From sequence record MW722821.1: DNA of 44,390 nucleotides. One strand, written 5' to 3'. A model generated the notes under the pieces. That model ran no database searches. It worked only from the letters and a program-made list of their open reading frames with translations, and was not told the origin of the DNA. How positions within the stretch are numbered: the first letter of the stretch is position 1; the number at the start of each line of letters is the position of its first letter. A program made the position numbers and the translations under genes. This document shows positions 3,667-40,391 of this stretch, piece after piece. Source of the DNA: Escherichia phage 590B.

Positions 3667-3693
3667 AAGGCCCCATTATGGGGCCTTAGTTTT
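3667..3693. terminator. bidirectional rho-independent terminator
   Basis: 8-bp GC stem AGGCCCCA/TGGGGCCT with T-runs on both strands, between convergent genes. Confidence 0.6.
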
Positions 3694-3896
3694 CAACGGA
3701 ATCTTGTGTTTAAATCCTGCTCATGGACAACCCTCAGAACAGTGTCATAATCCCCGTATCTTCCAGGTTCAAATATATCTAATGCCTTGTAAGCAGACAT
3801 TGCGTCAGGGAAAACCTGCAGAACCTTTTTAACCCGGCACAAGTCACCGTCGAACTCTTCATCGAACTCTTGAACTACTTCGCAAATTGCATACAT
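3693..3896 (-). CDS. hypothetical small acidic protein (opposite-strand moron)
   Basis: 67-aa ORF with perfect SD (AGGAGGTG), own sigma70-like promoter at 3921-3952 and bidirectional terminator at 3667-3693. Confidence 0.6.
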   Translation of the reverse strand: MYAICEVVQEFDEEFDGDLCRVKKVLQVFPDAMSAYKALDIFEPGRYGDYDTVLRVVHEQDLNTRFR

Positions 3897-3920
3897 TTTT
3901 CACCTCCTGTTTAAGTTAAC

Positions 3921-3952
3921 TGAATAGTACCCTATTATATTGGGGTGTGCAA
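3921..3952 (-). promoter_or_regulatory. sigma70-type promoter (TTGCAC-N17-TACTAT), family A
   Basis: -35 at 3947-3952 and -10 at 3924-3929 read on minus strand; 32-bp element identical to 13403-13434; 28 nt upstream of gene 3693-3896. Confidence 0.6.
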
Positions 3953-4225
3953 ACTATTTATTTACGTATTCCAGTTATTCCTCCGAATTGTAAATGTTGG
4001 AATAAACTATTCGAATAGTTGACTTTTCACTAAAAATATGATAAGCTCCACCTGAGCTTGTGAAGTATGAACAAGCGACCGCGGCGCGGGCAGGTAACGG
4101 AGCGGGACGTAAGTCCTGAGTGTAGTTACGCTGACGCGTTCGGAAGGGCCATACCCTATTGCTTGTGTAAAAAGTAACTGGTTTACTGAGATTACGCCGT
4201 TTCTATGTTTAAATGATAAGGACTA

Positions 4226-4252
4226 GCGCCCCGCTTTATGGCGGGGCTTTAC
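4226..4252 (+). terminator. rho-independent terminator
   Basis: GCCCCGC-TTTATG-GCGGGGC then TTTACTT; 20 nt upstream of i-spanin start. Confidence 0.5.
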
Positions 4253-4271
4253 TTATCGAGAAAGGGGAAAC

Positions 4272-4658
4272 ATGAATCTTAAAGCAACTGTCGTAGCAGG
4301 AGCATGTTTCATCATCCTGGTTTACGCACACGGCATCTACCAGTATCGCAGCGGATGGAACGAAGGCCGGGCTAATCTCGTTTCGCAGCAACAGCAGAAA
4401 GCACAGGCTGAGTTAGCGAAGAAAACACAACGGCAGCAGCAGGATGAATCGAAGGCCGCCGCCGCTGACAACGAAGGCAAGACGAAATCAGAGGTGATTA
4501 CCCGTGAAGTCGTTAAGTACATTAAAACGCCTGGTCGCAGCGTGTGCACTTTTGACCCTGAGCGCGTGCAGCTCAAGTCCCGCGCCGTCGCCAACGCCAA
4601 TTCCATCTCCGGATACGACGATGATGCAGCCGCCGTGCAAGCTGGCGCCACCAAGTAG
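4272..4658 (+). CDS. i-spanin (Rz-like inner-membrane spanin)
   Basis: N-terminal transmembrane helix followed by Gln/Ala/Lys-rich coiled-coil; contains an overlapping +1-frame lipoprotein gene (classic Rz/Rz1 arrangement). Confidence 0.65.
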   Translation: MNLKATVVAGACFIILVYAHGIYQYRSGWNEGRANLVSQQQQKAQAELAKKTQRQQQDESKAAAADNEGKTKSEVITREVVKYIKTPGRSVCTFDPERVQLKSRAVANANSISGYDDDAAAVQAGATK

Positions 4659-4767
4659 TGACGCGGACGAGGATTTAGCTATCGACGTTCAGAACGCCGA
4701 ATGCGTACGGCAACTGAGACTGAAAGTGTTCATGTTGCAGGATTACGTGAGGAATATTCTGGAATAG
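4504..4767 (+). CDS. o-spanin (Rz1-like outer-membrane lipoprotein)
   Basis: GTG start with GAGGTG SD; signal peptide ending in lipobox LTLSAC; proline-rich mature region; +1 frame overlapping the i-spanin 3' half and extending past its stop. Confidence 0.65.
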   Translation: MKSLSTLKRLVAACALLTLSACSSSPAPSPTPIPSPDTTMMQPPCKLAPPSSDADEDLAIDVQNAECVRQLRLKVFMLQDYVRNILE

Positions 4768-9533: not shown

Positions 9534-9946
9534 TGGGCTACTTTGAGGACTTAACAAAAGCGTTTGATGTGCCGCTGGTAGCCTTCGGAACCACCAACGG
9601 CATCAAGGTAGCGCTTGAAAACATCGACGCGCCGACGTCAACAGATACGCCGTATCTGGCGAGTTACATGCTACTGGCAGATACCGAGCAGGCGGATTTG
9701 TTCTTCACTGAGCAACGCTCTGGTATTTATCAGGTAGACATTAACTACGCATCGTTGAAAGGTAGCGCGCCAATCAATAAAATGGCAGACTTACTTAACA
9801 CGGCGTTTAAAGCAGGTAAGTCATTTTCGCGTAACGACATCTGCGCCGAGGTTCAATCGGTTAGCCTGGGGCCGCTGATTGTAGAAAACGGATGGGCCAA
9901 ACGGCCATTGTCAATTAACTTTATAGCATTCACCAAGAGGCTGTGA
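9533..9946 (+). CDS. tail completion / terminator protein (putative)
   Basis: 137-aa ORF directly upstream of major tail protein; TAATG overlap; synteny only. Confidence 0.4.
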   Translation: MGYFEDLTKAFDVPLVAFGTTNGIKVALENIDAPTSTDTPYLASYMLLADTEQADLFFTEQRSGIYQVDINYASLKGSAPINKMADLLNTAFKAGKSFSRNDICAEVQSVSLGPLIVENGWAKRPLSINFIAFTKRL

Positions 9947-9948
9947 AT

Positions 9949-11115
9949 ATGGCTACAACTCCTTTTAAGGGCGCGAATACCGCGCAATTCTATGCGGCGG
10001 AAACTACCCCTGGCGTAACACCGACTAACCCGGTATGGTCGCCGTTGCGTAACACTGGCGGTGTTCCTGCCGTAACCCGCGATGCGCTGACTTCCAACGA
10101 ACTAGACGGCAGCCGTGAAACTACATCCATCCGAACCGGTAACAAACAGGTTAGCGGGGAGTACGCCATCGAACTTAGCTCTCGTAGCCAGGATGATTTC
10201 CTTGCGGGAGCGATGACTTCTACGTGGCAAGCTGGGGTAGAGATTACTGGCGCCGAAATTACGGTCGCCCCAGCAGGTAAAACATTCACCCGCGCTGCCG
10301 GTAGCTTCCTTACTGACGGTGTAGAAGTTGGCGACCTGATTGCGTTCACCGACTTAACCGGCGACAACGCAAAACCGTTTATCGTGACCGCGGTTTCCGC
10401 TCTGGTAGTTACGGGCGCAGGTATTCAGCACACGCTGACAGCAGAGACAGTAACCACTGACGCAAAAACTGGCGACAAGCTGGAAACCGGTAACGCGTGT
10501 AAGACGTTCTCCATCCTGACGTGGTTCAAGGGCCAGTGTGATAACCCGGACGCGTACATGCTGACCAAAGGTGTGGAAATCTCTGGCTTTACCGTAGAGC
10601 AGGCGGTTAACGCCATGGTCACCGGCAGCTTCCCGTTCATCGGCCTGAGTCAGGAGATTCTTACCGCGCCGCCGTCTGGCTCTGATTTCTCTCAGGTTAC
10701 GTTCACCGATGAGCCGTTCTCGTCGGTAGATGTGTCGGTGTTCGATGGCTCCACGCCGTTGCGTTGCGATACTCTCACCATCACCAACGACAACGGAGCT
10801 TCCGCGCAGTTCGAACTCGGTAACAGTAGCGTGGCGTTCGTCGAACGTGGACGCGCAGCTAACACATTCTCTATCTCTGGCAAGCTGTACGACATGGCGA
10901 TGATTCAGAAGTTTATCAACGAGCAGCAGGTAGAGATTAACTCTATTCTGGCGGGGGTAAACGGGGCTATGTCTTTCAGTTTGAAACGCGCAGAGCTTAC
11001 AGCAGTAACACCAGAGATTGGCGGACCCGAGTCAATCACTCAGTCCATTGAGGGGCAGGCCACCGGCAACCAGTACCAGTCGTCTATCGTAATTCAACGT
11101 ATCACCTACGCATAA
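9949..11115 (+). CDS. major tail protein
   Basis: 389-aa Thr/Gly/Ser-rich ORF; ATG 9949 with AAGAGG SD 8 nt upstream (track start 9943 is GTG); followed by strong terminator. Confidence 0.55.
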   Translation: MATTPFKGANTAQFYAAETTPGVTPTNPVWSPLRNTGGVPAVTRDALTSNELDGSRETTSIRTGNKQVSGEYAIELSSRSQDDFLAGAMTSTWQAGVEITGAEITVAPAGKTFTRAAGSFLTDGVEVGDLIAFTDLTGDNAKPFIVTAVSALVVTGAGIQHTLTAETVTTDAKTGDKLETGNACKTFSILTWFKGQCDNPDAYMLTKGVEISGFTVEQAVNAMVTGSFPFIGLSQEILTAPPSGSDFSQVTFTDEPFSSVDVSVFDGSTPLRCDTLTITNDNGASAQFELGNSSVAFVERGRAANTFSISGKLYDMAMIQKFINEQQVEINSILAGVNGAMSFSLKRAELTAVTPEIGGPESITQSIEGQATGNQYQSSIVIQRITYA

Positions 11116-11118
11116 AAC

Positions 11119-11147
11119 TAAGGCCCCTTTCGGGGCCTTTTTCTTAC
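11119..11147. terminator. rho-independent terminator (bidirectional) after major tail gene
   Basis: AAGGCCCC-TTTC-GGGGCCTT followed by TTTTTCTT; also closes the minus-strand cassette. Confidence 0.65.
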
Positions 11148-11374
11148 TCATCAATATTGCTTCGGTATTCCCGTAACTTCTCCAGACTTTCAATTGCTTC
11201 CGCTAAGTCGGTTCCGGTGTCCTTGTGTCCGCGCAAGCCCATGCACAATAGCTTCTTCAATGCGTGCTGTAGCGCCGGGTCGCGTATATCGAAGGCGCGG
11301 AGCACATCATAAACGTCTACTGTCATAGTGCTGCCATGAGTGTTTGTCATTGTGCGGTTGTATTTTGAAGTCAT
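11144..11374 (-). CDS. hypothetical protein (last gene of opposite-strand cassette)
   Basis: 76-aa ORF; ATG 11374 with GGGGAG SD; ends at the bidirectional terminator. Confidence 0.5.
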   Translation of the reverse strand: MTSKYNRTMTNTHGSTMTVDVYDVLRAFDIRDPALQHALKKLLCMGLRGHKDTGTDLAEAIESLEKLREYRSNIDE

Positions 11375-11387
11375 AAATCAATCTCCC

Positions 11388-11858
11388 CTACTCATGGTTT
11401 TCATGGAAACCGTATTTACTCTCAGCGGCTTTACGCGCGGCAACCGCTACATCAAAATCATCGTAAAGCCCTAAATGCACTTGTTTGTAGTTAACTTTTA
11501 TAAACGCGCGCCACTTACCCGCGGCTTTGTGGAAACTTACACCTGTAGCCCCGGATTTATTTATCTTTCTCATAGTTTTATTTTTACTGTTCCCTGTATT
11601 GTCGGTGGCGCGTAGATTTTCTATTCTATTGTCTAGCCTGTTATGGTTTATGTGGTCTATTTGAATTTTCCTGTCTAAGTCACATTTATTATAAAGACAC
11701 CATGCTATGCGGTGGACATACACTGTTTTGCCACCCATACCGCAGCACAGATAGCCTCTTACACCAACCGTACCAACCTCAGCACCAGTAGATATCCTGG
11801 TAACCTGCCCAGTATCAGGGCAGTATTTAAATTGTTTTGAAACATCAAGGTACTTCAT
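11388..11858 (-). CDS. HNH homing endonuclease with AP2-like DNA-binding domain
   Basis: HNH core YVHRIAWCLY...IDHINHNRLDNRIENL followed by an AP2-like segment GVSFHKAAGKWRAFIKV...LGLYDDFDVAVAARKAA. Confidence 0.7.
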   Translation of the reverse strand: MKYLDVSKQFKYCPDTGQVTRISTGAEVGTVGVRGYLCCGMGGKTVYVHRIAWCLYNKCDLDRKIQIDHINHNRLDNRIENLRATDNTGNSKNKTMRKINKSGATGVSFHKAAGKWRAFIKVNYKQVHLGLYDDFDVAVAARKAAESKYGFHENHE

Positions 11859-12985
11859 CTTAGCATCTCCGGTGAGATTGAAAGCCTACCTACTTCCCCG
11901 AACTCTGAACTATAGGTTATGACGTTAGCGGACCTCTTAGACATCCACCCACCGCGGGAAGCATATGCATCTTTCGCCGCGAGAGTGCGATGTTGTTCCA
12001 CTACCATATTCCTACTTTCTACAATCTTTTGATGGTGGAGATGACCGACGTGTGCATAACTGTACTCGCTTTCGCCAAATGCTTTTCTGAACTTAGCTAT
12101 CATAATGGGTTCGACCACCTCAAACCGGCATTTATGCCCGTGTGTAAAGAACAACGTCGTTTTGCCGTGCTGCACCATCTTGTAAACATCCGGCGACGTA
12201 TCGACGAACACACGAGGCTCGTTGTCGTATAGCGTACTGAACATCTCAGCTAACCAAATCATTCCGCTTTCGTCGTGGTTCCCTTGCACGATAAGCAAGC
12301 GAACAGTTTTATGCTTAACAAGGGCCATATCGACAACACGGCGGACCATACGAATCATGTAGCGAACCAGTTTCTGGTAGCGCGTGTCCGCATCGAGAAC
12401 ATGACCACTTGCCGGGGTAACGGCGTCCAGACTATCGAAGTGTGCAAGGTCGCCAAGCAGGTTAATAACTCCTGTTCCTGCATCCGGTGCTTTCTGAAAC
12501 GCCGCGTCGAACCACCGAGAGAACAGGTCTTCTGCAATCTTCATGTCCCAGTCGTCGCCGCTCTCATCGGCCCATGCCAGCATACCGAGATGGAAATCAG
12601 ATACCGTGTAAAGATTGAGTAGTTTATCGTCACGTTTGGCTCGTGCCGGTTTAACAGGCGCAACGGGCGTAATCTCTGACTTCATGCCCTCTATTACGGC
12701 TTTCATCAATTCAACCTGACGTTCGGCATCAGCGTCGGTCTTAACCCATTGCAACTTAGTGTTGCCGAACTCGTCCACCAGGGACGACGTTCCTTTAATC
12801 TTGTAACCGTCTGGTACAAGGTGACTAACGTCGCGCCCGTGGCCTACGCCTTTCTTAGCCAGCTTCGCTTTACGGATACGAATAACTCGGTCTGAGATGC
12901 CGTATTTACGGGCGATATCGATATTCTTCATCCCGGCGTTCAATTCTTCCTGTAACTGTTCGTCGGTTATTTTCTTCTGGGCCAT
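11855..12985 (-). CDS. calcineurin-like metallophosphoesterase (Mre11/SbcD-like motifs) with N-terminal HTH domain
   Basis: Motifs SDFHLG (DxH), GDLAHFD, GNHDE, THGH, GHLHH in canonical order; N-terminal DIARKYGISDRVIRIRKAKL resembles an HTH; GAGGAAG SD; ATGA overlap with HNH gene. Confidence 0.65.
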   Translation of the reverse strand: MAQKKITDEQLQEELNAGMKNIDIARKYGISDRVIRIRKAKLAKKGVGHGRDVSHLVPDGYKIKGTSSLVDEFGNTKLQWVKTDADAERQVELMKAVIEGMKSEITPVAPVKPARAKRDDKLLNLYTVSDFHLGMLAWADESGDDWDMKIAEDLFSRWFDAAFQKAPDAGTGVINLLGDLAHFDSLDAVTPASGHVLDADTRYQKLVRYMIRMVRRVVDMALVKHKTVRLLIVQGNHDESGMIWLAEMFSTLYDNEPRVFVDTSPDVYKMVQHGKTTLFFTHGHKCRFEVVEPIMIAKFRKAFGESEYSYAHVGHLHHQKIVESRNMVVEQHRTLAAKDAYASRGGWMSKRSANVITYSSEFGEVGRLSISPEMLR

Positions 12986-13050
12986 GCTTACTTCCTCGTG
13001 TTTAGGATTTGTCCTATTTAACCACAGTGGATTCCTTTAAATAAAGGCGA

Positions 13051-13377
13051 CTATTTACTTTCCGCGCCTATCGCCCACCCGGTCATTACCATTTGCAGAC
13101 GGGTGGCTGTCAGTAGGCTATAGAAAGCATCTCCGTTTTTCTCTACCGAACGTATCACTGTGTAGGTTACGGCCTGCGGGGGTAGGCCCGATTTACCAAC
13201 CTCCACGGCGGCCTCACACTCGCGAACTGTAGAGTCCTTGAACGCCTTTACAATAGTAGGGTCGGCTTTCTCGAGCACACCAGAAGTCATAAGAACGGAT
13301 TCACTAAATACCTGTTCACACGGGACCCCAAAAGTAGCAAAAGACATAAACCCCAGAGCTAATACTAGTTTACGCAT
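13051..13377 (-). CDS. hypothetical secreted protein (signal peptide, no lipobox)
   Basis: N-terminal MRKLVLALGFMSFATFG hydrophobic signal-like segment; GAGGAA SD; own promoter at 13403-13434. Confidence 0.55.
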   Translation of the reverse strand: MRKLVLALGFMSFATFGVPCEQVFSESVLMTSGVLEKADPTIVKAFKDSTVRECEAAVEVGKSGLPPQAVTYTVIRSVEKNGDAFYSLLTATRLQMVMTGWAIGAESK

Positions 13378-13402
13378 AATTATTTCCTCAGTAAGTTACA
13401 TG

Positions 13403-13434
13403 TGAATAGTACCCTATTATATTGGGGTGTGCAA
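13403..13434 (-). promoter_or_regulatory. sigma70-type promoter (TTGCAC-N17-TACTAT), family A
   Basis: Identical 32-bp element to 3921-3952; upstream of gene 13051-13377. Confidence 0.6.
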
Positions 13435-13541
13435 GTAGTGTGCTAGAATAATTTTGCGCCTAGTGTCGCACACGAAAAGCGGGTGGTTCCCGTCTGGCGC
13501 GTCAACCTTAACCAGTAACCTCTTAACCAAAGGATTAAAGA

Positions 13542-13958
13542 ATGAAACTTTCTGATTTCTATTTTGCCGACCGCCACGCCGCCGGTACTAAAATGCCTAT
13601 CCTTCTGCCCAGTGGTAAAGATTCCGGTGAATGGTTGCAGGTCATCGGCCCCGATTGTGACGCTGGTGTTCGTGCGGGCCGTGCCTACACAACGGCAATT
13701 CGACGCCTTACGGAAGAACTTGCGCCATTAGATAAAGAGTGCGAGGCGCTGAATAACTGGGCGCGCTATAATGATGAGAAGGGCTGGCGGGTGATGGACC
13801 TGAACAAGCAGCTTGCCGTGGAAATCGTCACCGGTTGGTCATTCGACGAACCATTCAGCAAAGAGGCGCTTGCTAACCTGTTCGACCAGTACAGTGGGTT
13901 GGCAGAGGCCGTAGTTAAGCATCACACCGATAGCCGTGAGAAACTCTCGGAAAAGTAA
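13542..13958 (+). CDS. tail assembly chaperone (gpG-like, putative)
   Basis: 138-aa acidic ORF immediately upstream of the tape measure gene; AAAGGA SD; synteny-based. Confidence 0.45.
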   Translation: MKLSDFYFADRHAAGTKMPILLPSGKDSGEWLQVIGPDCDAGVRAGRAYTTAIRRLTEELAPLDKECEALNNWARYNDEKGWRVMDLNKQLAVEIVTGWSFDEPFSKEALANLFDQYSGLAEAVVKHHTDSREKLSEK

Positions 13959-14320
13959 AAGCGCTGTATGAATTTGCGCAATGGTGCTTTGTCGACCGCC
14001 ACAAACGTAAGCAATTCGACGACATCGCGGCGGGCCACCAGGCGGCTTTGATTGCAATGGGCGTGATTAAAGAACCGCAGATGAAAGAAGCGACGGGGCC
14101 GGAATGCCCCGTTTCTCTTATCGACGTGTTCGAGAAATACCGTGCCATTAAATTCCTACAGCGCGAAACAGATGATACTATCGTTATAATCCCGCGCGAT
14201 GCGCTCAAATGGCAAGATTTGGTAGCGTTTCGTGATGTCGCCGGTTACGGCATAAGTTTGTTCGAAGCCGAGGTTATCATGGGCTTAGACGGAATATTTG
14301 AGGGCAGAGAAGATGGCTGA
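13940..14320 (+). CDS. putative -1 frameshift extension of tail assembly chaperone (gpGT-like)
   Basis: The -1 frame is open from 13940 and overlaps the last 19 nt of the upstream ORF across an A-rich stretch CGGAAAAGTAAAAG; ends 14320 inside the tape measure start region. Slippery site not canonical. Confidence 0.35.
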   Translation, partial: ETLGKVKALYEFAQWCFVDRHKRKQFDDIAAGHQAALIAMGVIKEPQMKEATGPECPVSLIDVFEKYRAIKFLQRETDDTIVIIPRDALKWQDLVAFRDVAGYGISLFEAEVIMGLDGIFEGREDG

Positions 14321-23661: not shown

Positions 23662-23686
23662 AAGGCCCCAAACGGGGCCTTTTCTC
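23662..23686. terminator. convergent terminator between the two genome arms
   Basis: AGGCCCC-AAAC-GGGGCCT then TTTTCTC; sits between the tailspike stop and the minus-strand arm. Confidence 0.6.
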
Positions 23687-32572: not shown

Positions 32573-34795
32573 CTATTCCAAATCCTCCTCTGTCACCACC
32601 AGCATCTCATTTGGTTCGTATAGTGTCTTCGGCCTTAATCTATCCCCTATTCTTTCGGGTATACGATATGTTCTAGGTACTACTTCGCCGTTAGCATCGC
32701 AACCAAGCATTAGTTCTCCATCTTTCAACATTTTATCAAGATGGGTGTTAGTCACAGAGAAGTCACCGGAACGAGCCACTATCTGCTGCTGAGTAAAACC
32801 GCGACCTGTGTCATCTGACTGTTGCAGGTCTTCCAGTGCCGAAAGTATTGACTCCTTCCTTACTTCATCCCTGCCGCGTTTAACTTCTTCCTTTACTTTT
32901 TGCTTACCTTCTTTCGTCAACCCTTCTTCCCGCTCTTTCTCCTCGTCAGTTTTGAACGGCTCGAAACCCCACGGCATCAACACAAGCGCCTTGTGTGGTT
33001 CAGGAAGGTCCAGGTTTACGATTGTGCCGTATTCTTCTGTGCCCCCCAGGAACTCAACCGCACGGTACTCTTTCGGCGGCGGAGCTTCGCGGAACTGCAC
33101 AGACTCCAGCACCATGCCAACCGTTTTCTGTTGAGGACCGTGCTTAAATTTCGAGTGGTATACGTTTATTTGACGGTCGGTTGCACGTTCGATTGTCAGT
33201 TCCACGTCAACACCCGCATACAGCGCCCCACTGCCGCGTGCTTTCTTTCCACCCTTCGGCGTATGGTGGACAACGCCTACTGCGGCTTTAGTTGCATCGC
33301 GTACTTCTTTCAGAATGGCGATAACTTTACCCATGCCGATTGCTGTTGATGAACTGTTCTCGTCGAACTTATCAATCGTCAGTGCCAGGGTCTGGTTAAG
33401 GGTGTCGAACGCAACCATGCCAATTGGCTCGTCGCCAGCAGTTTCGCGCATTAACTTAATCAGGCTTTTAAGTTTGCCGACTTCGCCCATATCGATGACG
33501 TGTACATAATCTTTACCTTCCCCGCCATATTTAGCCGCTAGTGCATCAATACGGGTGCGTGTAGCTGCGCCACCCTCACCATCAATATAGAAATGGTGGC
33601 AACGCTGGGTATCCGCCCCCGCAAACCTGTACCCGGCGGCGCTGAGGTACATCATCCCCAGCGTATAGAACGATTTGTACGTGCCAGATTCCCCGACGAT
33701 ATCCCAGATACAATCCGACGGCATGTACCCCTCAACGACGAAATCAGCCTTTACCGGCTCCGGTAACTCGTCCTCCTCTGAGTCCTCGTCGTCTTCCAGG
33801 TCGTCGAGGCTGCAAGTTACTGGGTCCTCGTTCTCTGTGCGGTGTAGTTCTTCAATCTCTTCTTCCGGTAAATCAGGCAGAGCCGCACGAATGCTGTTAA
33901 TGCTGATAGGTTGCTTATCTATGTTAAGCTCGTCGGGTAGGCCACACATACGCAGGGCCAAATGCTGCCTACGGTTAAGCTCGGTGCAAGCGCCGTTGTT
34001 TGTATGCTGGCAGACAAAGCGCACTTCTTTACCGTCGAGCATTATGCTGGTGGAGCCCTTGCCTGTATGCAGATGTTCGTTAGGGCATGGCACTTCGTAC
34101 CCGCGCCCGGAAGATAAAGCGTCAAGGCCAAGCTCGGCTTCGCAGAAGTGTGCTATATCCGCGTTAAGCCCATGCTCATCAGCGGCAAGTGTTTTAGCCT
34201 CACGCTTACGCAACCCCATCTCTTCGGCTTTCTTGATGTACCGCTCAGCACGGATAACACGCCCTTCTGTAACCGTTATCTTCGACTCTTTATGCGGCAG
34301 GTAGATAAGGCGGTTGCCGTCTTCTGTGCAGTGGTCGCGCAACGCTTCGTCTATTTCTAACTCTGCACAAATAGCACGTTGCACCATCCACGCGTCGTTA
34401 GAGTTAAACGGCGTGCGAGCTGGAACCAGAACGCGGAAAGCGTAATCTCCATTTTTACATGCGTGCTGATGCGATGCCGTTGTGTGCAGAATATTGAAGA
34501 ACGGCGCGTTCTTGAATTTGCGTGTCAGGTCGCGGTACTGAGTACGGTTGAGATGGTCGAAATCGAACTTAACCACACTGTCTTCCAGGATAGCGTTTTT
34601 ACGGCGACCACCAACAGGCGCAATAGCTTTCTGTTTAATCTTGGCAGCGTCGTACTCTTCCTTAGTCCATGACGGGTCCACGGATAAACGCTTCGATGTA
34701 TCGCAGACATACTCGACAAACTGCTCCAGCGGCATTTCACGCGCTACAGGGTTTTTATCGAATGTGTTACGCAGCGTTGCAAAAACAATATTCAT
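32573..34795 (-). CDS. DNA primase/helicase (PrimPol-like N-terminal domain plus RecA/AAA-like ATPase domain)
   Basis: 740 aa; N-terminal primase-polymerase-like region, Cys/His cluster CPNEHLHTGKG...CQHTNNGAC, Walker A-like GESGTYKS, Lys/Glu-rich C-terminal extension. Confidence 0.65.
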   Translation of the reverse strand: MNIVFATLRNTFDKNPVAREMPLEQFVEYVCDTSKRLSVDPSWTKEEYDAAKIKQKAIAPVGGRRKNAILEDSVVKFDFDHLNRTQYRDLTRKFKNAPFFNILHTTASHQHACKNGDYAFRVLVPARTPFNSNDAWMVQRAICAELEIDEALRDHCTEDGNRLIYLPHKESKITVTEGRVIRAERYIKKAEEMGLRKREAKTLAADEHGLNADIAHFCEAELGLDALSSGRGYEVPCPNEHLHTGKGSTSIMLDGKEVRFVCQHTNNGACTELNRRQHLALRMCGLPDELNIDKQPISINSIRAALPDLPEEEIEELHRTENEDPVTCSLDDLEDDEDSEEDELPEPVKADFVVEGYMPSDCIWDIVGESGTYKSFYTLGMMYLSAAGYRFAGADTQRCHHFYIDGEGGAATRTRIDALAAKYGGEGKDYVHVIDMGEVGKLKSLIKLMRETAGDEPIGMVAFDTLNQTLALTIDKFDENSSSTAIGMGKVIAILKEVRDATKAAVGVVHHTPKGGKKARGSGALYAGVDVELTIERATDRQINVYHSKFKHGPQQKTVGMVLESVQFREAPPPKEYRAVEFLGGTEEYGTIVNLDLPEPHKALVLMPWGFEPFKTDEEKEREEGLTKEGKQKVKEEVKRGRDEVRKESILSALEDLQQSDDTGRGFTQQQIVARSGDFSVTNTHLDKMLKDGELMLGCDANGEVVPRTYRIPERIGDRLRPKTLYEPNEMLVVTEEDLE

Positions 34796-39660: not shown

Positions 39661-39925
39661 ATTATTCTGGTTCGGCGGTATGCTGGCAATCGGAGGCACA
39701 TCGCTGTTTAATGTATATCACCCCAGCGTGGATGACGGGCTATTCGGGCGTGTGCTCTATATCCTGACTGCTATTGTCTGCGCCGCCGGATGTATTCACC
39801 TGTTGCAGGGCAGCATGTCACCAACGCTGCCTGAGACGTTAATTACATTAGTTGCGCTGCGTCAGATTCGCCAGGCGTGGCTGTCGTACGGAGGACATAA
39901 GCGTGTCTCGAAACATTTCAGATAA
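39653..39925 (+). CDS. second membrane protein of lysis cassette (holin/antiholin-like)
   Basis: 90 aa with two hydrophobic helices; GAGGAGG SD; overlaps holin stop and endolysin start. Confidence 0.45.
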   Translation: MNELFWFGGMLAIGGTSLFNVYHPSVDDGLFGRVLYILTAIVCAAGCIHLLQGSMSPTLPETLITLVALRQIRQAWLSYGGHKRVSKHFR

Positions 39926-40391
39926 TGGGTTGCATTTCACTGCCGCGTTCGAGGGGTTCCGCGGAACTGCGTATCGCGCTACGCCAAATGAGAAGTACCT
40001 GACTATTGGGTACGGTCATTATGGGCCAGACGTAACGCCAGGCAAGACCATCACCCCGGGACAAGGCCTCCTGTTACTGAATCGTGATATGGCTAAGGCC
40101 GTAGCTGCGGTTGACGCAGCGGCACACCATTCATTGACACAGGCACAGTTCGATGCAGTGTGCGACCTGGTATACAACGCAGGTGCTGGTGTGATTGCTG
40201 CTACTACCGGCACGGGTAAGGCACTGCGTTCTGGTGATATTGCAACGCTGCGGGCTAAGCTGACACTGTTCATCAACCAGAACGGCAGACCGTTACTTGG
40301 TCTGCGCCGCCGTACTGCCGGTCGTCTGGCGCTGTTCGACGGTAAACCGTGGCAAGAGGCAGAGGCTATCGGGCGCGCGGTGAAAGGTTGA
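39903..40391 (+). CDS. endolysin, lysozyme-like (GH24-type)
   Basis: FEGFRGTAYR...LTIGYGH matches the lysozyme/lambda R-type N-terminal signature; GTG start at 39903 with GGAGGA 7 nt upstream (no in-frame ATG near N-terminus). Confidence 0.65.
   Translation: MSRNISDNGLHFTAAFEGFRGTAYRATPNEKYLTIGYGHYGPDVTPGKTITPGQGLLLLNRDMAKAVAAVDAAAHHSLTQAQFDAVCDLVYNAGAGVIAATTGTGKALRSGDIATLRAKLTLFINQNGRPLLGLRRRTAGRLALFDGKPWQEAEAIGRAVKG

Follow-up and report, generated by a model that had tools for sequence, protein, structure and literature searches.

A modular minus-strand cassette between the tail tube and tail chaperone genes of Escherichia phage 590B combines a lineage-fixed metallophosphoesterase, a predicted homing endonuclease and an exchangeable first gene

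End-healing enzymes include T4 Pnkp and the bacterial Pnkp that carries a calcineurin-type phosphoesterase domain. Homing by free-standing HNH endonucleases with co-conversion of flanking markers has been described, including for endonucleases of T4 (PMC2790892, PMC2988022). The locus examined here is built from parts whose types are already known. It lies in the 44,390-nucleotide (nt) sequence of Escherichia phage 590B (record MW722821.1; this whole stretch is called the window) and consists of four minus-strand genes between the tail tube gene and the tail assembly chaperone genes, encoding a signal-sequence protein (sp108), a helix-turn-helix (HTH) metallophosphoesterase (MPE), an HNH endonuclease and a 76-residue protein (p76). 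The unit measures 2.3 kb and is bounded by a terminator at 11120-11139 and a divergent promoter region at ~13416-13449. We find that this cassette is a modular patchwork and not one purpose-built operon, and we think it probable, with moderate confidence, that it is a composite accessory unit in which a fixed MPE/p76 end-processing core is combined with a selfish HNH gene and an exchangeable envelope gene. The original prediction, upheld in part, had read the four genes as one coherent moron operon, a view that the analysis did not support: the MPE gene is fixed in the lineage and the HNH gene has a selfish history of its own. The features of the locus are as follows.

9943-11115, plus strand: tail tube gene (Phage_tube_2, E 7e-36)
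11120-11139, both strands: bidirectional intrinsic terminator, ending the tube gene on the plus strand and the cassette on the minus strand
11144-11374, minus strand: p76 gene (76 amino acids, aa), the last gene of the cassette
11388-11858, minus strand: HNH(-AP2) homing endonuclease gene (156 aa), exactly at the MPE/p76 junction
11855-12151, minus strand: putative co-conversion tract, the final ~297 nt of the MPE gene, apparently moved together with the HNH gene
11855-12985, minus strand: HTH-MPE gene (376 aa), with the HTH at aa 8-44 (12854-12964), a beta-hairpin/helix linker at aa 61-104 and the core at aa 119-376 (11858-12631)
13051-13377, minus strand: sp108 gene (108 aa, signal sequence, two cysteines), in the first, exchangeable slot (slot A)
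13416-13421, minus strand: probable -10 element TATAAT of the cassette
13441-13449, plus strand: extended -10 element TGcTAGAAT, putative divergent promoter of the chaperone/tape-measure operon
13453-13517, plus strand: int-alpA-like structured RNA at the predicted 5' end of the chaperone/tape-measure transcript, not part of the cassette
13542-13958 and 14048-14320, plus strand: tail assembly chaperone genes, the other flank of the cassette

The four minus-strand open reading frames (ORFs) lie exactly where they had been placed, and the domain calls made for them were borne out by an HNH_3 match, the MPE motifs and fold, the N-terminal HTH and the sp108 signal sequence. The cassette is also, as proposed, an independent opposite-strand transcription unit within the tail module. 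Coupling by ATGA overlaps had been claimed throughout; it is present at one junction, between the MPE stop and the HNH start (11855-11858), whereas the other two are gaps, 13 nt from HNH to p76 and 65 nt from sp108 to MPE, each with its own Shine-Dalgarno sequence. The locus is already annotated in many GenBank genomes. What is new is the recognition of three components (an enzyme core that stays fixed, a selfish endonuclease whose cross-genus co-conversion tract could be mapped, and an envelope gene that is exchanged), together with a recurrent linkage of MPE to a polynucleotide phosphatase gene (HAD_PNKP type, here PNK), a P-loop gene and at times a ligase gene, and a DUF3310-like fold for p76.

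The HNH gene is, judged by its sequence context, a selfish free-standing homing endonuclease gene with a separate history and not a functional member of the operon. Its product matches HNH_3 (E 5e-10), phrog_99 (E 1e-55) and the PADLOC 'homing endonuclease' model, with an AP2 match below threshold, and the gene is inserted between the MPE stop and the p76 start. Many Salmonella Jerseyviruses encode a protein with 99.4% aa identity to it; identity reaches 95% or more in 38 records and almost never falls between 60% and 95%. The same HNH type is absent from Bas71, K1H and Jersey and from 33 of 33 Kagunavirus loci in IMG/VR. Identity between the window and Salmonella phage S101 is 55-70% at the nt level in the chaperone and tube genes and 76% (75.8%) over nt 1-825 of the MPE gene, rises to 97.4% over the 303 nt of MPE nt 826-1128 (100% at the aa level) and to 98-99% in the HNH gene, and returns to the genus level in p76 (81%). 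In the same-genus phages Bas71 and K1H, which carry no homing endonuclease gene (HEG), identity to the window is 89-91% over MPE nt 1-825 but only 72-74% over the final ~300 nt, the HEG-less Jersey being also 72-74% identical in the tract; p76 is 94% identical to that of Bas71. At the MPE C-terminus the residues follow HEG status in both genera, with one set in alleles linked to a HEG and another in HEG-free alleles. This pattern is the signature of homing with one-sided co-conversion, which would place the cleavage site within the 3' region of the MPE gene, and it indicates that the HNH gene and the MPE 3' end moved recently between Salmonella and E. coli phages.

Other HNH genes occupy the MPE/p76 junction in NBSal007, L019, L026 and L032. 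For the second, NBSal007-like HNH type no near-identical MPE allele was found between genera (L019 and NBSal007 are only ~77% identical). In T1 and in a Vibrio phage, MPE is followed by HNH genes that are 33-35% identical. In two Kagunavirus-like loci (L021, L025) a further HNH gene, ~43% identical to that of the window, lies between p76 and the terminator, so that the cassette has at least two HEG insertion points.

By its sequence, 590B is a Kagunavirus-like phage. The cassette region is ~94% identical at the nt level to Escherichia phages SCS92 and NTEC3, and 393 phage records match it, nearly all Kagunavirus or Jerseyvirus (subfamily Guernseyvirinae). For an unbiased survey the tail tube gene was used as anchor in IMG/VR, which gave 33 complete loci whose tube protein has an identity of at least 88%. 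MPE lies between the tube and chaperone genes in all 33 of these Kagunavirus-like loci and also in every GenBank Kagunavirus/Jerseyvirus relative sampled. Slot A holds a T4-Imm-family gene in 23 loci, sp108 in nine and no detected gene in one; slot B holds PNK plus P-loop in 16, p76 alone in 12 and p76 with some HNH gene in five. Individual annotated phages illustrate these exchanges, with MPE as the constant anchor and three slots whose content varies. Bas71 has no HNH gene, and its 76-aa gene overlaps the MPE stop at an intact ATGA junction, as p76 does in HEG-less relatives; in K1H a HAD-type polynucleotide phosphatase (HAD_PNKP, E 7e-20) and a P-loop protein replace HNH and p76; in EC3-1 and S101 a T4-Imm-family protein (Imm_superinfect, E 1e-13 and 2e-15) takes the place of sp108; and Jerseyviruses carry an extra Rha/ANT-type gene before the terminator.

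The cassette is absent from 24 loci with a tube protein 67-81% identical, where the tube-to-chaperone gap measures 94-880 bp or is filled by a single gene (an sp108 relative, 36-38% identical, an Imm gene or an ANT gene), and the whole genome of Serratia phage Eta lacks MPE. The tube/chaperone junction is a true accessory site; MPE is nonetheless fixed in it across two genera. The idea of a variable cassette, with the comparison to related genomes proposed as its check, therefore held for the junction, which is empty or carries one small gene in distant relatives, including the 24 loci and Eta, but not for MPE, which is fixed in 33 of 33 close relatives and in Jerseyviruses.

These distributions bear on the view of the cassette as one moron operon for inter-phage competition or counter-defence, in which MPE would be a nuclease acting on rivals or a phosphodiesterase degrading immune signals, and HNH and sp108 would cooperate in exclusion. 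The independence of the unit, with its own terminator and a conserved promoter block, would fit such an operon, as would the variable filling of the slot in more distant relatives and the alternation of an Imm-type exclusion gene in slot A; MPE, however, is fixed in the subfamily and occurs at unrelated positions in ~2,000 phages, whereas anti-defence genes are typically sporadic, and the history of HNH is separate and selfish. A signal phosphodiesterase could be suspected from the presence of Rv0805, a class-III cyclic nucleotide phosphodiesterase, among the top structural matches of MPE, yet a DNA-binding HTH is hard to square with a small-molecule substrate, the recurrent partners of MPE are PNK, P-loop and ligase genes, and no defence-related match, from PADLOC or otherwise, was obtained. 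We consider such a competition or counter-defence operon quite unlikely.

MPE is a member of phrog_704 (E 7e-166). Homologues were found by tblastn in 2,038 phage records, near full length in 1,957, and span the Guernseyvirinae, Dhillonvirus, the Drexlerviridae (including T1 gp16) and Vibrio, Roseobacter and Campylobacter phages. Outside the Guernseyvirinae the gene is found away from the tail module, between replication/dam and lysis genes in T1 and Hanrivervirus and after the lysis genes in Dhillonvirus. Five calcineurin/Mre11 motifs (DxH, GDxx(D/H), GNH(D/E), H and GHxH) are invariant in 79 sequences, down to ~28% identity (D130/H132, G178-D179/H182, G235-N236-H237, H282 and G314-H315/H317), and W80 and K82 of the linker are likewise invariant. 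Pfam matches stay below threshold (Metallophos_2 25.3 bits, cut-off 27; Metallophos 19.4, cut-off 21.5), and a direct sequence search against the PDB returned nothing; the protein belongs, on its sequence, to a divergent calcineurin-like subfamily that is captured by phrog_704. An AlphaFold model (predicted local distance difference test, pLDDT, 83; predicted template modelling score, pTM, 0.71) consists of a three-helix HTH, a beta-hairpin with a helix, and an MPE core with the beta-sandwich MPE fold. In structure searches this fold is nearest to SbcD/Mre11, although only 187-189 residues align, and the core is of the small Metallophos_2/MJ0936/YfcE type. The calcineurin-like fold and motifs proposed for the 376-aa protein were thus upheld by the 79-sequence alignment and the predicted fold; the profile search suggested alongside them returned only marginal matches, to HTH proteins and to SbcD/Mre11 (E about 0.4). 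We regard the modelled fold as certain, and motifs and model together predict that MPE is very probably an active enzyme; the fold by itself does not give the substrate.

The HTH shows weak matches of LuxR/GerE/FixJ type and to a 'late transcriptional activator', and lambda-type Ser/Thr phosphatases belong to the same superfamily as MPE. Both would suit a protein that is chiefly a regulator, either a transcription factor or a lambda-PPase-like protein phosphatase reprogramming host or phage expression, which strikes us as highly improbable. PADLOC and NCBIfam gave no informative match for MPE, p76 or sp108. In the literature on Guernseyvirinae, Drexlerviridae, T1 gp16, SECphi and anti-defence contexts we found no functional study of the MPE family, and the BASEL paper describes Kagunavirus phenotypes and not this locus.

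The company that MPE keeps in other phages is the main basis for assigning it a role in end-processing. The order MPE, PNK (HAD_PNKP, E 7e-20), P-loop, found in 16 of the 33 Kagunavirus-like loci, recurs in the SP6-like podovirus Era103, between T7-type exonuclease/endonuclease VII genes and an ATP-dependent DNA ligase gene, and in two siphovirus contigs (L110, L111), where it is followed by a ligase 45-46% identical to that of Era103. Two other contigs (L109, L112) have MPE followed by PNK, and a T1-like contig (L139) has MPE, HNH and p76 in succession. Overall, PNK comes directly after MPE in four lineages, mostly with a P-loop gene as well and in two of them with DNA ligase. This recurrent neighbourhood points to DNA or nucleotide end-processing rather than to signal degradation. 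In L139 (2749-3875), two adjacent partial MPE-like matches (47% and 43% identity) were also seen directly upstream of the intact MPE; they may be a disrupted duplicate or a second divergent copy.

The same neighbourhood could serve RNA repair as counter-defence, with MPE as a 2',3'-cyclic phosphodiesterase/3'-phosphatase that would join a kinase in mending tRNA or mRNA ends left by host anticodon nucleases or other RNases of defence systems. Analogues are the calcineurin-type domain of bacterial Pnkp and the T4 Pnkp/Rnl1 pair. Modules of MPE, HAD phosphatase and P-loop kinase, at times with a ligase, do occur in several lineages, and the small Metallophos_2/MJ0936/YfcE-type core would suit such a phosphatase; the associated ligase, however, is annotated as, and similar to, the ATP-dependent DNA ligases of SP6-like phages, the window holds neither an RNA ligase nor the PNK/P-loop pair, and the HTH suggests binding to double-stranded DNA. 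RNA repair therefore appears very unlikely. A broader proposal, speculative and in our estimate rather unlikely, is that MPE and its interchangeable partner (p76, or HAD phosphatase plus P-loop kinase, sometimes with ligase) form a widespread, uncharacterised phage 'end-healing' counter-defence module, which would repair phage DNA or host or phage RNA ends left with a 3'-phosphate or cyclic phosphate by defence nucleases, and whose alleles homing endonucleases would shuffle across host genera.

The second component of the proposed core, p76, belongs to phrog_2452 (E 2e-36) and is found in 773 phage records. Its domain of ~65 aa forms 3,585 clusters at 50% identity and occurs alone or fused at either end of unannotated proteins without Pfam domains, with the consensus KY.R.I...G...VDVYDVL.AF.V..PALQHAIKKLLC.GLRGHKD...DL.EA. 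The AF2 model (pLDDT 91.6) is a beta-hairpin with three helices. A Foldseek search of BFVD reached, beyond the family itself, models of DUF3310, SaV-like and gp1.7-type nucleotide kinase proteins (TM 0.63-0.71, E 7e-3 to 5e-2), and family members annotated as a DNA ligase fusion and as a 'phosphodiesterase' also appeared in the fold search; both observations fit a link to end-processing. Pfam gave no DUF3310 (PF11753) or other real match for p76, ten fused homologues and 40 family members, whereas T7 gp1.7 itself matches PF11753 at 4.5e-23. On the model, p76 is at most a distant fold relative of DUF3310 and not a member. Other leads were rejected. PDB profile matches to an immunoglobulin light chain were spurious. 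PHROG matches at the C-termini of longer families had raised the possibility that p76 is what remains of the 'ATP-binding' P-loop gene of K1H, but BLASTP gave no alignment, and the domain's occurrence as a free-standing module, alone or fused at either end, also rules out a P-loop remnant.

The fold of p76 bears on nucleotide salvage, in which the MPE nuclease would degrade host DNA and p76, or the P-loop kinase with the HAD phosphatase, would turn the products into nucleotides. T7 offers a parallel in gp3/gp6 and the gp1.7 nucleotide kinase. Such a pathway would explain the relation of p76 to gp1.7-type 'nucleotide kinase' models, given that T7 gp1.7 carries DUF3310, and would suit the position of the Era103 MPE gene directly after T7-type exonuclease and endonuclease genes as well as the nuclease-like fold of MPE. 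Against it, p76 has only 76 aa and no profile similarity to gp1.7, the HAD protein specifically matches the PNKP polynucleotide phosphatase model, and the window phage has a PD-(D/E)XK nuclease of its own. We rate salvage as unlikely.

The first gene of the cassette encodes a protein with a classical n/h/c signal sequence by hydropathy heuristic (MRK followed by a 14-residue hydrophobic core), no further hydrophobic or transmembrane segment, and cysteines at positions 20 and 54. From its signal sequence sp108 is predicted to be envelope-targeted. It matches only phrog_14165 (function unknown) and is found in only 98 phage records. Distant homologues, at the 36-38% identity given above, stand alone in the slot in phages without MPE; this occupancy and the alternation with Imm imply that sp108 is functionally independent of MPE. 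Since a T4-Imm-family gene replaces sp108 in 23 of 33 loci, the suggestion that sp108 is a candidate superinfection-exclusion factor is reasonable, and such a role is plausible by position only.

The signals that delimit the cassette were analysed in 34 related loci. The terminator, AAGGCCCC-TTTC-GGGGCCTT, has an 8-bp stem; from intrinsic-terminator calls on either strand and folding energies of -15.4 (plus) and -19.6 (minus) kcal/mol (z -4.7 and -4.9), the bidirectional terminator that had been proposed is real. It follows the tube gene in 33 of the 34 loci, with the loop in either orientation (TTTC or GAAA). The stem AAGGCCCC-loop-GGGGCCTT occurs three times in the window (3667-3687, 11120-11139 and 23662-23681; chance expectation zero), each copy where plus- and minus-strand transcription converge, after the head-morphogenesis, tube and tailspike genes. 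With one hairpin at all three convergent junctions, the cassette terminator looks integrated in the transcription plan.

At the other end, TATAAT at 13416-13421 is the probable -10 element of a cassette promoter. The promoter had been called a consensus one, which it is not: read as 13421-13416 the TATAAT is perfect, the -35 (AGCACA) is poor and the promoter scan is not above chance. The case for it comes instead from conservation, a -10 being present in 27 of 34 loci (TATAAT in 21, CATAAT in six) within a block that is conserved regardless of the slot-A allele. Transcription would be expected to start at ~13409, giving a 32-nt leader with a GAGGA Shine-Dalgarno sequence (13385-13389). The top promoter of the scan, TTCACA-16-AATAAT (13406-13379), was not taken for the cassette promoter, since its -10 sits between the Shine-Dalgarno sequence and the start codon. 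On the opposite strand, 22 bases from TATAAT, the extended -10 TGnTAGAAT is present in 34 of 34 loci and is read as the putative restart promoter of the chaperone/tape-measure operon. Serratia phage Eta has the structural module in common with the window, and its record annotates the same layout of a bidirectional terminator, one minus-strand gene and divergent promoters. The Eta record (L080) also annotates, at 33375-33391, a 17-nt motif as a three-copy repeat (AAACAAATAAGTTGCAA). This repeat aligns with a conserved TTGCAA(G/C)TA.T.TG.T block (window ~13427-13443) between the divergent promoters of Kagunavirus and Jerseyvirus, and the block may be the binding site of a shared regulator.

The RNA at 13453-13517 matches int-alpA (Rfam RF02996) over the full model length at a sub-threshold 30.3 bits (gathering threshold 35.8). 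It has two hairpins inside an outer stem, and this three-stem structure is supported by covariation: RNAalifold on 13 distinct sequences from Kagunavirus, Jerseyvirus and more distant relatives gave 14 pairs, nine with double compensatory changes. The z-score of the single-sequence fold is unremarkable (-0.74), and the RNA is absent in phage Eta and in L044-type loci. It may act as a leader through which antitermination, processing or translation of the tail operon is controlled.

From the anatomy, conservation, motifs, folds, mosaic identity and neighbourhoods observed, we infer biochemical activities and expression timing as follows. The composite unit occupies a conserved slot between the tube terminator and putative back-to-back promoters, one of which would restart the chaperone/tape-measure operon while the other drives the cassette. 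Its first layer is a lineage-fixed core made of an HTH-tethered, catalytically complete MPE with a minimal Mre11/SbcD-like fold and of p76, translationally coupled to MPE where no endonuclease intervenes. MPE and p76 would act during infection on phosphodiester or phosphate ends of DNA, or on nucleotides derived from DNA, with MPE serving phage DNA metabolism as a nuclease or as an enzyme that processes ends. A pair of HAD 3'-phosphatase and P-loop kinase stands in the place of p76 in sister phages, and elsewhere MPE, PNK, P-loop and at times DNA ligase are found together. In the second layer, HNH would spread by cutting endonuclease-less genomes in mixed infections and be copied in by recombinational repair along with about 300 nt of the MPE 3' end, with a recent transfer across the boundary between the Salmonella-phage and E. 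coli-phage genera. The third layer is the exchangeable first gene, the exported sp108 here and a T4-Imm-type membrane protein elsewhere, most likely acting at the envelope against superinfecting phages.

Several observations weigh against this composite reading. The model of MPE ends with the core at residue 376, with no capping domain, and no SbcC/Rad50-like gene is adjacent to it or among the large ORFs of the window, an absence that had been correctly foreseen for the genome and that holds beside the MPE homologues of T1, Era103 and a Vibrio phage as well; for these two reasons MPE falls outside the canonical Mre11/SbcD type. About 35 kb separates MPE from PNK in T1, many marine loci have none of the screened reference-set neighbours beside MPE, and the adjacency of MPE to PNK/P-loop could be partly a shared insertion hotspot. 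The link of p76 to DUF3310 is structural only (E 7e-3 and weaker) and fails at the sequence-profile level, hhalign against T7 gp1.7 giving a probability of 0.4% and no alignment. For sp108, no Pfam, NCBIfam or PADLOC match and no homology to a characterised exclusion protein (Imm, Sp, Cor, Llp) were found, and its similarity to the slot gene of phage Eta is marginal (E 0.02). Promoter-like sites in the region do not exceed the shuffled expectation (4 found, 3.2 expected).

Phage 590B is of virulent type, and its genome is that of a small siphophage with three arms.

about 0.1-23.7 kb, plus strand: structural arm, the first of the three
minus strand: replication arm, with SNF2 helicase, C5-methylase, PolA, Enc34-type single-strand DNA-binding protein, DUF2800/PD-(D/E)XK nuclease and primase-helicase
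plus strand: right arm, which carries the lysozyme gene

A second interruption of the structural arm was observed at 3693-4271. It comprises a minus-strand 67-aa ORF (3693-3896, no Pfam match) that ends at the 3667-3687 hairpin, then a low-GC stretch of ~375 bp with no ORF of at least 45 aa, then a plus-strand terminator-like hairpin (4228-4247) just before spanin-like genes (4272-4658; embedded lipoprotein ORF 4504-4767). Rfam returned nothing above gathering thresholds for this region, which may encode a small RNA or have a regulatory function. The lysis genes seem to be divided, with Rz/Rz1-like spanin ORFs (4272-4767) in the structural arm and a Phage_lysozyme endolysin gene (39852-40391) ~35 kb away in the right arm.

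The phrog_704 HTH-phosphoesterase is among the more widespread phage enzymes of unknown function, with carriers among ~2,000 sequenced phages that include T1, Jersey-like Salmonella biocontrol phages and BASEL model phages, and its linkage to kinase, phosphatase and ligase genes yields a specific biochemical hypothesis that can be tested. In the HNH gene, with its mapped co-conversion tract, nature has preserved an uncommonly clear trace of homing between phages of different host genera, and such events carry functional gene segments between therapeutic-candidate phages. The locus also illustrates how a tail operon is split and restarted by a bidirectional terminator, divergent promoters and a structured leader RNA. 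For engineering of these 41-44 kb phages, the slot accepts anything from nearly nothing (a tube-to-chaperone gap of ~94 bp) up to about 2.9 kb.

Compared with the morons of lambdoid and other siphophages, the cassette is similarly autonomous, with its own terminator and probable promoter between late (tube/chaperone) genes, and the slot is empty or otherwise filled in distant relatives such as Serratia phage Eta. It differs in being multi-gene and modular, with a central gene fixed in two genera and widespread elsewhere, and in a virulent-type phage lysogenic conversion is not applicable. The HNH gene resembles T4 mobE-type free-standing HNH genes as an intergenic gene beside a conserved gene, sporadic and near-identical across divergent genomes, with one-sided co-conversion of its neighbour; here, however, the apparent target is a phrog_704 phosphoesterase gene and the transfer spans two genera with different hosts (Salmonella and Escherichia).

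From T4 Imm-type proteins (Pfam Imm_superinfect), with which it shares the first cassette slot in most relatives and envelope targeting, sp108 differs in lacking sequence similarity and in its predicted nature: the Imm type is a small membrane protein, whereas sp108, with two cysteines and a signal of cleavable type, would be exported in soluble form. With DUF3310, SaV-like proteins and the T7 gp1.7 C-terminal domain, p76 shares a small fold of beta-hairpin and helices and a similar pattern of conserved basic residues, without a Pfam DUF3310 match or profile alignment to T7 gp1.7. MPE differs from Mre11/SbcD proteins (T4 gp47, T5 D13, E. coli SbcD) in having no capping domain and no Rad50/SbcC ATPase partner, in carrying an N-terminal HTH and beta-hairpin module, and in its negligible sequence similarity to solved members. 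PNKP end-healing systems differ in turn, since MPE and its neighbours are separate proteins, the window phage has no PNK/P-loop pair and there is no RNA ligase; in sister phages and in unrelated lineages, MPE adjoins genes for a HAD_PNKP phosphatase, a P-loop protein and, in some cases, a DNA ligase, a neighbourhood that corresponds to the same set of activities as the healing-and-sealing enzymes.

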